Below, piece by piece: positions 14,538-63,662 of a DNA stretch of 64,000 nucleotides. The first letter of the stretch is position 1; every line of letters begins with the position of its first letter. Origin of the DNA: Eledone cirrhosa (taxonomy: Eukaryota); NCBI GenBank assembly GCA_964016885.1, contig OZ024743.1:78802001-78866000 (forward strand). Direction: 5' to 3'. Made by a program: the position numbers and the translations under genes. Below the pieces are notes generated by a model. It ran no database searches, was not told the DNA's origin, and was given only the letters and a program-made list of their open reading frames with translations.

Positions 14538-14730
14538 TGTGTCTGATGGTAGCTAAGATGCTTCCATAGGCGGTATGCCGGTTGAGCACTCTATACTCTT
14601 ACAGAGCAGAGTATGATATAATAGAAAACGAAAAATCAGTGATGCATCTGAACTCGATTTATTGTGTGTTACAATTGTTTCCCCGGCTGAGAGTTCAGAT
14701 GCATCACTGATTTTTCGTTCTCCATTCTAT
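14538..14730. mobile_element. Fold-back element in (AT)n (arms ~14620-14657 / 14692-14730); relatives at 31170-31497 and 46200-46340
   Basis: acgaaaaatcagtgatgcatctgaactc is inverted to gagttcagatgcatcactgatttttcgt; the minus strand of the loop carries GAAACAATTGTA. Confidence 0.75.
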
Positions 14731-16310
14731 ATATATATATATATATATATATATATATATATATATATATATATATATATATATATATATATATATATGA
14801 AAAAATGGGGAGAAGAATACTGCAGGTTGCACATGGATAACATGTTATAAAATGAGTCCCTCATCAGTGATTTGCCAACGATCATAGATATTTCATTGCA
14901 TTAAAAATCATATACCTCACGTTGGTGCAATAATAACTAAATTAAGTTATTAGGACAATTAAAACGCGTAAAGCAAGTGAGACAAGTAAACAACAAAGAG
15001 GAAAGCTAACCGTAGATAGGAAGGGAACAAGCTACATAGCTATTCTGTCAGCATAAGCTGGGTGAATATATGAGCGCGTAGAAAAAAGACCTTTCGAGAT
15101 GAATCCAAATGTAAGAAAGAAGGAAATATATATATATATATATATATATATATATATATATATATATATATATATATATTCATCAGTTAAGCAAAACAAG
15201 ACCACAAATTTCACAAGGAAGACATTATTAAAAGATTGTCAACATATTTAGTTTGATGTAAGGAATGTAGAGAATAATAATAATAATAATATTAATAATA
15301 ATAATGCCCGTTTACAATTGTTTCTCTACTCCGTATAATATTTCGGGATCAGATAACTATGTATCATAATTGATCTGGTTCAGTTGAAAATAATTAACAT
15401 ATTTAAAAAAAAACAGAATGGCTCATCGGAACTCAAAGGAATATAAATTAAAATAATGTTACATAATATAATGTTCCATATATTAGTTTTTACTATGCTG
15501 CTTTTGTTTCATCAGCTGTCAGCCATAATCAAGCAGTACTCATCTGTCGAGGCTGCATTGTGTGAGATCTGCCTATGGGTAACAAGATGGCTGCCAAAGG
15601 GCATATTTACCTTACTAATTAGAGGGTGGTTTCAGGGGAAGTAACTTCTCGAGAGATTAGAGATTGTGTGTATTTTATAGTTAAGTGCTAGTATTTAAAT
15701 TATTTAATTGAGAGACAATGTAGGGGAGGTAACTTATAATTATCGAGTTGTTCATAGCAATTTAACTTATTAGCTACAATTAGAGATGGGGCTACATGGC
15801 TAAGTTGGGTCAAAAACTCTATTGGCGAAGGAATTAGCCCTTCGATGTTGACAGCTAATGGTTACCTCAGTTCTATCGTTAATTGGTAGAGGTCTTGATA
15901 GAGCTATGTAATACGCTTCCGTAACACAGAGATCACAAGATTTCCTTCGTCCATCTCAATCTCTCTCTTTAAGATTGGTTACTCTTGAACTGTGTATATA
16001 TATATATATTATATATATATATATATATATATATATAACGAAGGAAATGTGGTAAGGAACCAGATGGACCATAACGCACCAAAGTACTCAATACTTAGGG
16101 TAGTAGAGTGGGTAATAGGAACGAGTAGGACCTACGAGTTGGGGTCCTACTCGTTCCTATATATATATATATATATAAATATATATATATAGCTCTGGTT
16201 CATCCGAACCATTGAGCACTATGCCGCACATTTCGGAGATTGTTTTTCGTTATTTAGTGGGCCGAAGTTTCGATTCTCGATAATTTTATTTGTATTTTTA
16301 TATATATATA

Positions 16311-16690
16311 TATAAATTAATAAAAACAATCAATAAAAACAAAGAACAAATTCCTTATATTAAAAAAATTCATCATTTTACGATCGTTTCTAGGATATAT
16401 ATGTGTGTTGGTATGTATATCATATAGATTTAAGTAAAAAATTTTACAAACTATAATATATATGTGAAGGTATGTATATTTCCTCTGATAGTTTTGTAAA
16501 ATTTTTACATATATCTATATGATATACATACCAACACACATATATATCCTAGAAACGATCGTAAAATGATGAATGTTTTAATATAAGGAACTTGTTCTTT
16601 GTTTTTATTCATTGTTTTTATTAATTTATCTTGACTTTGTAAACTCACCAAGTCACACGGAAACTGTGCTTACGCCCGCCTTATATGCAT
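16311..16690. mobile_element. Fold-back element in (AT)n (arms ~16311-16454 / 16487-16629 plus right tail)
   Basis: ~140-bp inverted arms; contains the hammerhead 3' half GAAACGATCGTA, also seen at ~62255. Confidence 0.82.
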
Positions 16691-16724
16691 GTATGTATTA
16701 TATATATGTGTGTGTGTCTGTTTA

Positions 16725-16924
16725 NNNNNNNNNNNNNNNNNNNNNNNNNNNNNNNNNNNNNNNNNNNNNNNNNNNNNNNNNNNNNNNNNNNNNNNNNNNN
16801 NNNNNNNNNNNNNNNNNNNNNNNNNNNNNNNNNNNNNNNNNNNNNNNNNNNNNNNNNNNNNNNNNNNNNNNNNNNNNNNNNNNNNNNNNNNNNNNNNNNN
16901 NNNNNNNNNNNNNNNNNNNNNNNN
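16725..16924. other. Assembly gap (200 N)
   Basis: Run of n. Confidence 0.99.
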
Positions 16925-17500
16925 GTTAGTGCTCTCTTGTGGGGATGTTCTTATTACTATATTGATATCGTCTACGTAACGAGAGTACATGATGAGGTCT
17001 ATGGAGCTCTCATCAAGGAGATCTTTAAGTCTCCTTTCCCACCATACCATAAAAAGGTTGGCAACGTCACCAGCTATGCTGACGTCAATGGCTGCTCCCT
17101 CATTTTGGGTGTAGATCTTCTCGTTGAACTTGAATATGTGGCCCTTTAGGGTAGTTTTGATACTAGCCCCTATTGCATGTGCGACCATTTTTCTTACCTG
17201 ATCATTGTTTTGGGGGGTCCGTATAGCTTTGGTCCACCCAATCAACCCTCCCATGGGAGACTTTTTAGCCATTGAGGTTATGGTGGGGGTCTACCTCTTA
17301 TGGGTCTACTGGGGCAGAAACGTCTAAGGTCATGGCTGTCTAATTAGTCAGTGTCGTAGGTAAGTCTAAGTAGGAGGCCCAATTCGACTGTGTCGACGTC
17401 GCAGAACTCCACCTCACTCTCAATGATCATCACCACACATTTTTCCACAGCAAAATCAATGTTAATGGATGGGTACAGTGATACCACATCCATGCTGCCT
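16925..17500 (-). mobile_element. Penelope-like element RT fragment, same family as 51830-53860
   Basis: GSMDVVSLYPSI, EGAAIDVSIAGDVANLFM, YSRYVDD. Confidence 0.85.
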
Positions 17501-17555
17501 ATATATATATTAAAATACAAATATTAATAAAATAGATGTTCTTTTGATCAATTAA

Positions 17556-17608
17556 ATTTTATTATACATATTTCAGAGGTACAACAGTACGTCCTCATCA
17601 GACAAAAT
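17556..17608 (-). ncRNA. Type I hammerhead ribozyme (family A)
   Basis: Minus strand attttgt-CTGATGA-ggacgtactgttgtacctct-GAA-atatgtat-A-ataaaat: stem I pairs, full core, short near-palindromic stem III. Confidence 0.8.
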
Positions 17609-61330: not shown

Positions 61331-61798
61331 AAAGAAAAGAGAGCAAACATTTCACTTTGAGAAGATCGGTTGATCCGGTCTTTTCTTTAGCTGAAAAGGG
61401 CTTCTCAGAGGTTTTTATGTTAAGGTTTAAACTGAATGACCCGAGGTTCTTGGTGAATGTTAATGTTGTTTATTTGTTTCTATGTGGTGGTTGTTCAATA
61501 CCTCCTCCTTCACGTCGCTGTTGATCTTTCTATAACCGGGGAATTGATGTAGGAAGATTGTGTTGGAGATTGTTGCTTTAATTGTTCTTTTTTGGAGGAT
61601 GGTTGGATTGTGGTGAGGGCATTGGTGTTGGTATGGACTTGGTACTAAGTGCTGAGGCCCCCAGATCCCTTGTAGCCGTTAGCTAGAGCCGGTCTCAAGT
61701 GGGGACAATTTTAAATCCCCCATCGCAGTCTCCTTTTGTGTTTGTTTCGTCGCATATAATGATGATTTATACAATTTATGTTTTGAGTTATGTTTTAG

Positions 61799-62012
61799 AT
61801 GCAAATTGTGGTGAAAAACCTTTCCGTCGCCGTCAGAGAAGAAATAAAAGAATTATTGGTGGTACCAGAATATATCCTGGTGACTGGCCTTGGCTGGTGT
61901 CATTACATTTCGACGGACATCACCCTTTTCAAGTAAATTCTGGTTATAAGCATCTCTGTGGAGGTTCTTTAATTCACCAACAGTGGGTCTTGTCAGCTGC
62001 CCACTGTTTCGA
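61799..62012 (+). CDS. Exon of a trypsin-family (S1A) serine protease: activation site to catalytic His
   Basis: ttttag| [50 protein letters not shown] |gtaagt. Confidence 0.95.
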
Positions 62013-62147
62013 GTAAGTGTTTACACCTCATTTTGTTCATAGCAAATCTTCGAATTAAATAAACGAAATGTTATATTTTCATTAAATTCTATTATATAAA
62101 ATTCTATTATATATATATATATATATATATATATATATATTTTGACA

Positions 62148-62272
62148 ACGGCTGATGATATACATGTAGGTAAATATATTCCTTATCTGATATTTTGTAA
62201 CTAACCCTACATAGATCGATAACGAAATATGCGTACGATGTATTATTATCACCTAGAAACGATCGTAAAGCA
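62148..62272 (+). ncRNA. Hammerhead-like motif with very long stem II region
   Basis: CTGATGA at ~62151 and GAAACGATCGTA at ~62256, about 100 nt apart; stem I poor; related to 16455-16565. Confidence 0.4.
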
Positions 62273-62605
62273 GTGAAGTATATTTCTAATGACGATGTTT
62301 TATTTCATTGTTTTAACTTATATCATGACTCTGTTTTCCTTTTGATGTTTTATTGTTTTCCGGGATTTATTTTAACCTACAACATTTTCAACATATGGAT
62401 TACATTGAGTTCTTCATGCGGACTAGACCCCACAACTGACAGTGGATATTTCTAGGTGTGTATATATATATATATATATATATATATATATATATATATA
62501 TGTATATATATACCCGAACATTATAATAAATGTTCGGTAAACCCATACGTACATATATATATATATATATATATATATATATATATATATATATATATAT
62601 ATATA

Positions 62606-63100
62606 TGAATCTCAGGAAAATGGGAAAACTCGGCGTATGGAAGCTGTTAGAACACCAAAATACCGTCGAAGTGGCGTTGGATAAAATATTACCTGGAAGG
62701 ACAGAGATCAGTGGCTAAAGGTGAGTTGACTGGAGGGAAGAGAACACTGGAAGGAGGGAAAAGAATGGATATTTGGTTCTCCGTTACGAGCCTCCTATTC
62801 CCCGCAGTAATCTCATTAATTCGTCGAAACTGCTGGAGGTTGGGATCTGACGAGCATATATTAATGTCTGTGACCTTTTGGCTGTCATCCATTCTTTTCC
62901 CTCCCTCCTATCTTCTCTTCCTTCCAGTTAACTCACATCTAGCCACTGATCTCTGTCCTTCCAGGTAATATTTTACCCGACACCGCATTCGACGGTATTT
63001 TGCTGTTCTAACAGTTCCCATACACCGAGTATTCCCTTTTTTCTGAGATTTCTATACATTCGCGTCTCAAAACTCTACTTTCGAGTTAGTTTTTTGTTTA
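62606..63100. mobile_element. Old fold-back element (arms ~62608-62770 / 62887-63050, diverged) plus right tail
   Basis: aatattacctggaaggacagagatcagtggcta is inverted to tagccactgatctctgtccttccaggtaatatt; many mismatches elsewhere; (AT)n flanks. Confidence 0.85.
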
Positions 63101-63230
63101 TATATATGAATGTATGTATAGTATATTTGGCAATATACCGTATGTCACTTACTTATATTTTCGGCATATATATATATATATATATATATATATATATATA
63201 TATATATATATATATATATATATATATATA

Positions 63231-63662
63231 ACCAAAGATTAATATGGTTCATTGATTACTCAATGAATATAGTTTTACAATAGATTAAAAGCACTCTACA
63301 AGGAAGTTTTCTGGAGTTATTAATATTATTCAGAATATTAATAAATGAAGACATTCACATAATCAAAATATATGTTTTATTATATATATTTCGAAGGTAC
63401 TGTGCTGTTTTTTCAGTACGTCCTCGTCAGATAAAATACATGAATTGATGTATGACATACCTCAACGGTCTTGATGGTTCAATTCCAGTATTGGCACTCT
63501 AGAATTGAACCATCAAGACAGTTGAGGTATGTCATACATCAATTCATGTATTTTATCTGACGAGGACGTACTGAAAAAACAGCTCAGTACCTTCGAAATA
63601 TATATAATAAAACATATTTTGATTATGTGAATGTCTTCATTTATTAATATTCTGAATAATAT
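63231..63662. mobile_element. Hammerhead-bearing fold-back element (arms ~63325-63488 / 63498-63661 plus left tail)
   Basis: ~160-bp inverted arms with few mismatches, flanked by (AT)n. Confidence 0.9.
63549..63614 (+). ncRNA. Type I hammerhead ribozyme (family A); mirror copy on minus at 63373-63438
   Basis: tattttat-CTGACGA-ggacgtactgaaaaaacagctcagtaccttc-GAA-atatatat-A-ataaaaca. Confidence 0.85.

Follow-up and report, generated by a model that had tools for sequence, protein, structure and literature searches.

Head-to-head hairpins of Penelope-like elements in the Eledone cirrhosa genome as probable paired strong-stop copies of element mRNA

Why is a 64,000-nt stretch of the 3.0-Gb genome of Eledone cirrhosa (assembly GCA_964016885.1, contig OZ024743.1, positions 78,802,001 to 78,866,000; hereafter the window) studded with short inverted repeats that lie at (AT)n microsatellites, mostly lack an open reading frame (ORF), and carry an extension, or tail, on one arm only? 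The original prediction, made from the DNA letters, listed 13 such hairpins, saw hammerhead ribozymes in many of them, and read them as extremely truncated or non-autonomous products of Penelope-like elements (PLEs) made by fold-back or template switching, together forming a class of hairpin retroelements in their own right. We find that the hairpins are copies of the pseudo-long terminal repeat (pseudo-LTR or pLTR) and tail of PLEs, mostly of the Hydra clade, and that they show an architecture already described for an established class rather than forming a new kind of element; and we conclude, with a probability of roughly two in three, that they consist of two short strong-stop cDNAs, made anew for each insertion and joined head to head. 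Families are named here by letter: A (the hairpin at 63231), B (31538), C (44297 and 44765), D (14538, 31170, and 46200), and E (16038). Positions with a sign are relative to a predicted transcription start at +1.

Self-alignment of the window and alignment of each element recovered every one of the 13 inverted repeats listed; their arms are 36-1406 nt long and 88-100% identical, and 12 of the 13 have a one-sided tail of 32-134 extra nt, the exception being the hairpin at 44765, which is symmetric as first described; two further hairpins, at 16038 and 46206, had not been listed. An inverted arm starts within the first or last 30 nt of 10 of the 49 (AT)n-bounded segments of 60-1300 nt, compared with 0 in ten dinucleotide shuffles and 1-4 in randomly placed segments. 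The one-sidedness of the tail had been held to be non-random, and is; the 115-nt "tail" of the hairpin at 62606 is probably about 36 nt of its own tail plus a piece of another family (63099-63165). The head-to-head polarity of the arms is likewise borne out by the hammerheads, by the GIY-YIG ORFs of the hairpin at 32345, and, in family B, by every one of the close pairs (12 of 12) in the first 100 genome matches. The elements had also been called largely unrelated, which overstates the case, as kin groups can be recognized (14538/31170/46200, 44297/44765, and 31538/36352/25543). Raw reads from three runs of restriction-site-associated DNA (RAD) sequencing, aligned to a family B copy, show the same loose ends (at +2/+3 and at the two outer ends of the arms, sites B and A) and the same opposite-strand joints as the assembled hairpins; RAD read depth is biased and related subfamilies contribute reads, and no contig or read aligned to 62560-63720 spans a whole hairpin.

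The arms match both ends of ORF-bearing PLEs, as the proposed origin would have it. A full family B copy (locus L218) comprises a pLTR and tail, a 712-amino-acid ORF counted from the first Met, a 3.6-kb 3′ untranslated region (UTR), and a second pLTR that ends at site B against (AT)n; its ORF contains RWR, DKT, YRDD, and CxCX5C motifs and a GIY-YIG domain without CCHH. The motifs that define the Hydra clade (RWK-like, DKT, CxCX5C linker, no CCHH) are found in the L218 and L217 ORFs and in the family A endonuclease (EN), and the N-termini of families E and C also fit. Because Pfam gave no match on the L218 and L217 ORFs, their assignment to PLEs rests on these motifs and on 634 homologues; a PDB sequence search with the family B ORF returned nothing meaningful. 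The tail continues into a PLE ORF in family C (L276), in family E (L031 and L155), and in a 70% relative of the hairpin at 16311, which is tied to PLEs solely through that relative. The family E ORF in L031 has the RWR and DKT motifs, the linked ORFs of families C and E are known for their N-terminal part only, and family A is located 3′ of Hydra-type reverse transcriptase (RT) and EN remnants in L031. A pLTR at both ends, an optional tail, and an inverted upstream copy recur in L218, L077/L219, L031, and L276. Judged by sequence, families A, B, C, and E are thus assigned as the pLTR/tail ends of Hydra-clade PLEs. The hairpin at 32345 retains GIY-YIG coding sequence, as originally noted, which points outward in both arms (PF01541, E 2e-7) and is a candidate Neptune type. 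The tail of 31170 abuts an RT/EN remnant whose own 3′ pLTR was not seen, about 1 Mb of fetched loci contained no ORF linked to families 14538, 21568, 62606, 20414, 21141, or 36500, and long upstream fetches for families C and D contained no linked EN.

Two observations on PLEs stand apart from the listed hairpins. Another PLE family, absent from the window, has a near-perfect palindrome plus tail right before an intact 775-amino-acid Hydra-type ORF (L217:1900-2330), and further PLE ORF remnants are found in the window at 36898-38178, 47521-48607, 52316-53861, and 16928-17511, two of them Hydra-like, plus a separate RT/GIY-YIG type.

The families are abundant: a family B 29-mer has 11,290 exact genome matches, and the tails of families B, A, and C have 8,903, 683, and 384, respectively. 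Copies were sampled in the list order of pattern searches, not by score. The family A sample consists of 73 of the first 74 places, 53 with an automatically called inverted partner (126 arms); the family B sample consists of 60 loci, less the duplicate L120, 33 of these 59 having a partner (92 arms, with the L098 partner uncounted and the L061 place excluded), and agrees with a partly overlapping, tail-anchored family B sample of 30. The arms have fixed outer ends, either at site B or at site A, where A is B plus the tail. In family A, +268 is the end point of 62 of 73 tail arms and +176 that of 37 of 53 partner arms, with AT repeats flanking 63 of the 73 and 45 of the 53, and the fixed ends in family C are +156/158 and +104. 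Central junctions vary from copy to copy in all families sampled, and each hairpin was therefore probably made at insertion; the few junctions that recur (L103/L104, L119/L120) belong to pairs of nearby loci that resemble local duplications. A separate class of non-autonomous hairpin retroelements, as had been envisaged, would not be expected to look like this, since most sampled copies share no internal junction.

What determines where an arm begins? About half of the arms in families A and B start within a window of 12-14 nt that likely corresponds to the predicted transcription start. In family A, the hot spot at -3..+8 accounts for 54 of 126 arm starts, the following 162 nt for 46, and upstream sequence for 20, a density of 4.5 per nt in the hot spot versus 0.28 per nt downstream; in family B, -3..+10 accounts for 51 of 92 starts, with 12 further downstream in the pLTR and 28 upstream. 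The hot spot lies just upstream of the ORF; in both families TATAAA is positioned exactly at -30, and an A that follows pyrimidines occupies +1. A promoter within the PLE pLTR has been described (Schostak 2008). Read by eye, 50 family E arms that were picked up incidentally mostly terminate within a few nt of a single site, and about 30 nt 5′ of that site is a TATA-like motif. Mostly random extreme truncations, as first supposed, would not start at one predicted site in about half of the arms. Nor does a poly(A) signal explain the short arm: in ORF-bearing copies the tail is the sequence between pLTR and ORF, and a poly(A) signal is not consistently present at site B in the family A, B, and C references. 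Two local causes of the hot spot were considered and rejected, namely the edge or cut of the hammerhead (in family A the core is at +69 and cleavage would follow +118, and only 2 of the 92 family B arms begin near the cut) and a local palindrome (self-complementarity near +1 is weaker than elsewhere).

Arms that begin at the hot spot and abut (AT)n often carry an additional, non-templated G, here counted by hand. Genome-wide, 55 family A arms abut ATATAT at +1 versus 5 at +7; the base at -1 in the 55 is G in 27, A in 15, C (the templated base) in 10, and T in 3 (G vs C, p=0.004), and G is found in 0 of the 5 at +7 (p=0.043 vs +1). Background counts for the base that follows ATATAT, given that A comes next, are G 308, C 307, T 933, and A 2392. 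The base at -1 in the first 100 of 275 family B matches is G in 46, T in 24, C in 21, and A in 9. Family E has G at -1 in 10 of 50 arms, some explicable by the partner arm (by eye), and a local tally of 21 other (AT)n-abutting starts includes three with an extra G, one of these at +1. At full-length L1 5′ junctions an extra G has been attributed to the cap (PMC11702581). The evidence for a physical end of the RNA at +1 is stronger than that for a cap.

Are the two arms one cDNA or two? The tail-less arm extends at least 10 nt further 5′ than the tail arm in 17 family A loci versus 11 in which the tail arm extends further (6 versus 3 in family B), and in about 7 family A loci the tail-less arm reaches +1 while the tail arm begins beyond +90. 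Some insertions consist of a tail alone joined to an inverted body (window 25539-25666 and loci L097, L342, and L370); single-arm insertions occur from +1 to B and from +1 to A, several with the extra G; the extra G is also found on tail-less arms (L336, L353); and the hairpin at 44765 bears the tail on each of its arms. We favor two sense-templated cDNAs, both arms having been copied from RNA. Simple fold-back of one tail-bearing cDNA, which had been among the routes suggested, leaves many longer tail-less arms unexplained unless extra deletions are assumed.

Minus-strand strong-stop DNA of retroviruses and LTR retrotransposons is a short cDNA that runs from an internal start to the 5′ cap. 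We propose that PLE hairpins could arise from a comparable product. The hot spot would be the capped 5′ end of the element mRNA, 67-270 nt upstream of sites B and A; PLE protein would bind near the mRNA start, and each target strand would prime one cDNA internally, usually one at site A and the other at site B; both cDNAs would either run off at the cap or terminate before it; and short microhomologies would join their 3′ ends. Longer copies, either ORF-containing or 5′-truncated, would result when a longer RNA is primed at its distal 3′ pLTR. Two cDNAs from sites A and B fit the report that both strands are cut and extended from two internal starts (Frangieh 2024, PMC11167929). More tentatively, and with less than even confidence, PLE replication as a whole may be LTR-like and target-primed, with strong-stop DNA (the tail plus the part of the pLTR below the start) jumping to the repeat at the 3′ end. 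If so, the pseudo-LTR would be regenerated and 3′ tails gained without a tandem transcript, and the hairpins would be aborted double strong-stop products, the commonest insertion type of these families. Arms that run past the start into the upstream 3′ UTR (20 of 126 in family A, 28 of 92 in family B) fit such a jump, and fit read-through of tandem loci equally well.

Several points weigh against the two-cDNA reading or parts of it: i) the start site and the cap are predictions from DNA, and +1/+2 in family B could be the AG of a splice acceptor; ii) the family C hot spot is weak (about 5 of 30 tail arms at -3..+2) and has no clear TATA box; iii) a few automatic partner-arm calls are probably spurious (e.g. 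L341, L366, and L367), and deletions of the centre after insertion could make either asymmetry between arms; iv) in a +31 control for family B, which is diluted by mutated contiguous copies, G was found in 4 of 19 perfect-(AT)4 rows versus 29 of 72 at +1, which is not significant (p=0.098), while G in 4 of 5 family B +31 rows of the same repeat phase weakens the specificity of G to +1, and the family B G would also be expected from fold-back on hammerhead stem I; v) R2 adds non-templated G and T in vitro (PMC13000458), and G therefore marks a template end more surely than a cap; and vi) parents for 21568, 62606, 20414, 21141, and 36500 were not found in the fetched loci.

Other explanations share some of this evidence. 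A single cDNA could run from the tail end to the RNA 5′ end, prime itself, and be copied back to site B, with deletions in the centre scrambling the junctions. Junction palindromes have been read in this way (Arkhipova 2013, PMC3846280), and such self-priming would account for the many junctions with short overlaps and for those family B junctions that use hammerhead stem I (L122, L300), while sharing the run-off hot spot with two cDNAs. We nonetheless consider it unlikely: the tail-less arm is more often the one that lies further 5′ and can reach +1 where the tail arm does not, single arms from +1 to B bear their own G, and nothing in the model fixes the stop of the second strand at B. Amplification as palindromic units, either as non-autonomous hairpin families or as random extreme 5′ truncations, might be suspected from the lack of an ORF, the thousands of copies, and the few recurring junctions; it is very improbable given that most copies differ in junction, that the recurring pairs are clustered, that the sharp start hot spot is unlike random truncation, and that the same sequence is found at the ends of ORF-bearing copies.

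The end of the RNA might also be produced otherwise than by a capped start, by ribozyme cleavage, by splicing, or by an RT stall at a local hairpin. The family B hot spot does coincide with the 5′ edge of stem I of the hammerhead and is preceded by a T-rich tract that ends in CAG, and in D. virilis an intron ends at the 5′ end of helix I (PMC4209133). The distance of the family A core and cut from its hot spot, the absence of AG at +1 in that family, the scarcity of family B arms near the cut, the weak self-complementarity near +1, and the TATA box at -30 in both families leave this a highly improbable account. Least credible of all is that the hairpins are TA-targeted miniature inverted-repeat transposable elements (MITEs), i.e. 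DNA transposons, or palindromes of assembly or amplification, in spite of being short, ORF-less inverted repeats in (AT)n: MITEs would have equal terminal inverted repeats and a fixed interior, whereas the ends here are unequal and fixed and the interior variable; the arms match PLE ends and differ from each other by up to 12%; and raw reads of all three runs contain the ends and the opposite-strand joints.

The pLTRs contain a hammerhead motif, predicted from its conserved pattern. A type-I descriptor scan of the window found 12 motifs versus 0-1 in 20 shuffles, and the claim that many elements carry hammerheads stands for some of the 13 and not for others: four have a complete or variant motif (complete in both arms of 31538 and of 63231 and in 44297; variant core in 31170), four have partial motifs only (44765, 14538, 20414, and 21141), and in five the scan detected none (16311, 21568, 32345, 62606, and the window copy of 36500). 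A hammerhead core can be read by eye in further copies of the 20414, 21141, and 36500 families. Rfam gave no credible hammerhead, with none at E<=1 in the window, none in 63400-63660, and RF00008 only at E 8.5 (31855-31945). Older relatives of family A, each a single arm whose hammerhead motif is intact, lie in the window at 17519-17609, 19969-20095, and 50153-50314, and a relative of the 19977 copy, which belongs to this older kin, sits 5′ of a PLE ORF in L194. At L077:949-1026, many read starts in three runs of raw reads show a joint between the sequence immediately preceding site B and a point 15 nt upstream of +1, a backward step of 76-78 nt; head-to-tail repeats of a ~77-nt hammerhead unit, retrozyme- or satellite-like, are the likely explanation, and no such repeats were found among the fetched loci.

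Coordinates of the window features are collected below.

Table 1. PLE-derived hairpins and related insertions in the 64,000-nt window (positions count from its first letter).
Feature	Position	Strand	Details
Family D hairpin	14537..14727	-	arms 14620-14655 and 14691-14726; 83-nt tail at left; 3′ half only of a variant hammerhead
Family E hairpin, not in the original prediction	16038..16157	-	15-nt arms; 80-nt tail
Hairpin	16315..16692	+	arms 16315-16454 and 16488-16626; ~66-nt tail; 70% related copy 5′ of a PLE ORF in L061
Hairpin	20414..20560	+	arms 20414-20452 and 20461-20503; 57-nt tail; hammerhead 3′ half
Hairpin	21145..21452	+	arms 21145-21263 and 21302-21420; 32-nt tail; family has a minimal hammerhead upstream in L031
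Hairpin	21560..21977	+	arms 21567-21704 and 21706-21843; tail ~120-130 nt; parent not found
Family-B-related insertion	25539..25666	+	inverted tail-less arm joined to tail alone; no palindrome
Family D′ hairpin	30183..31495	-	arms 31222-31340 and 31377-31495; variant hammerhead core 31364 (+); tail continues into a 5′-truncated RT-thumb/GIY-YIG remnant
Family B hairpin	31539..32009	+	arms 31539-31736 and 31741-31937; ~68-nt tail; hammerhead cores 31878 (+) and 31598 (-); predicted +1 near 31872; arm starts at -127 and -141
Long head-to-head hairpin	32353..35362	.	1.4-kb arms; 33-40 nt tail; two candidate Neptune-type GIY-YIG ends, 3′ ends outward
Single-arm family-B-like insertion	36352..36409	+	almost only hammerhead (+4 to +60), between microsatellites
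Hairpin	36470..36737	+	arms 36491-36587 and 36591-36682; ~55-nt tail; hammerhead upstream in other copies of the family
Family C insertion	44297..44515	.	tail-less arm -3..+104 with full hammerhead (core 44392 -), joined to tail-bearing arm from +56
Family C symmetric hairpin	44763..45060	.	tail on both arms (+3 and +17 to +156)
Family D short hairpin, not in the original prediction	46206..46335	+	22-nt arms; 74-nt tail
Hairpin	62607..63090	+	arms 62608-62770 and 62887-63050; own tail ~36 nt; neither parent nor hammerhead found
Family A hairpin	63231..63663	-	tail-bearing arm +3..+268 (63496-63231); tail-less arm ~+11..+176 (63499-63662); 92-nt tail; hammerhead cores 63430 (-) and 63557 (+)

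Some arrangements are more elaborate. Symmetric pairs of complete +1-to-A arms around a central (AT)n, each arm with the extra G, are found at L320 (G000:C5:12052000-12052800) and L300; (AT)n also occupies the centre of inverted repeats in the window at 25840-26201 and 45949-46072; and pieces of the 21568 family, 25-39 nt long and in both orientations, are stacked between (AT)n runs at 20819-21144 and 21471-21509. A near-identical duplicate of part of the window, with the same hairpins, lies about 290 kb away (G000:C4:78,556,000-78,580,000; L002, L124, and L376), and is either a segmental duplication or an unpurged haplotype. The rest of the window includes three tRNA-like sequences above the Rfam tRNA cutoff, each inside a dispersed repeat (12794-12876, 13235-13317, and 14107-14189); LINE-type (long interspersed nuclear element) remnants at 5248-6579, 9763-12120, and 22573-24267, the first and third with zf-RVT and RVT_1 matches; tandem arrays with units of roughly 37-75 nt (54452-56184 and 7124-9239); and a host trypsin-family exon (61813-62016), closest to octopod tryptase-like proteins, whose best homologues over 61813-62013 are from Octopus and Argonauta and are 70-77% identical.

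ORF-less palindromes of this kind are easily misfiled as MITEs or as microRNA precursors; Rfam matches in the window and in the scans of 63400-63660 included sub-threshold microRNA models. If our reading is correct, the hairpins of each family map the promoter and both RT start sites from DNA alone, and they are a clue to the copying of a poorly understood class of transposons. The strong-stop DNA of LTR elements, with which we compare them, is tRNA-primed and is not integrated as such, whereas the cDNAs here would be target-primed. We did not find a strong-stop or cap reading for PLEs, nor an account of fixed outer ends with copy-specific centres, of the start hot spot and its extra G, or of asymmetry in both directions between the arms, in the literature searched, which did not cover older subscription papers, so that a prior report is possible.

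The closest known systems are other PLEs. An inverted pLTR copy, a one-sided tail, and a (TA)n bias are described for PLEs by Craig et al. 2021 (PMC8557442), whose supplement lists Hydra-1_Obim from Octopus bimaculoides with a (TA)n preference. The elements studied here resemble Hydra-clade PLEs in their RW(K/R) and DKT motifs, CxCX5C linker, C-terminal GIY-YIG domain without CCHH, hammerhead, and (TA)n targeting, and resemble PLEs in general in combining an inverted 5′-truncated copy with a one-sided tail; they differ from the Hydra-clade elements described there in comprising many families with hundreds to thousands of exact-match copies, and their tails are 32-130 nt long, versus 30-40 nt in the PLEs described (PMC8557442). 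The passages of that paper on 5′ truncation describe it without a start-site hot spot or an extra G.

Short inverted hammerhead pairs and head-to-head junction palindromes are also familiar: opposite-strand minimal hammerhead ribozymes 100-700 bp apart in Schistosoma were ascribed to truncated PLEs (Cervera and de la Pena 2014, PMC4209133), and the inverted pLTRs of Adineta have head-to-head junction palindromes, with TATA and initiator (Inr) motifs in a pLTR (Arkhipova 2013, PMC3846280). The explanations offered in those accounts are truncation or self-priming on an antisense template, whereas our data favor two sense-templated cDNAs. L1 twin priming is similar in that both target ends are primed on the RNA and an extra G is found at the full-length 5′ junction; the second L1 priming site is variable and the inversion occurs without duplication, whereas both sites are fixed here and the shared segment is duplicated (PMC11702581).

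[quoted passage not shown] Two tail-bounding start sites, the use of both strands, and AT-rich targets are common to both systems, while PAc belongs to a different clade and was studied in vitro; the abstract and main text of that paper draw no link between inverted insertions and run-off on capped mRNA. Thousands of young copies per family in E. cirrhosa provide an in vivo readout that agrees with the in vitro findings of 2024 and adds two testable claims, that the 5′ ends of the copies are the mRNA cap site and that RNA is the template of both arms. The combination of run-off at the start site, an extra G, and two RNA-templated arms is likely a new mechanistic detail of PLE insertion.

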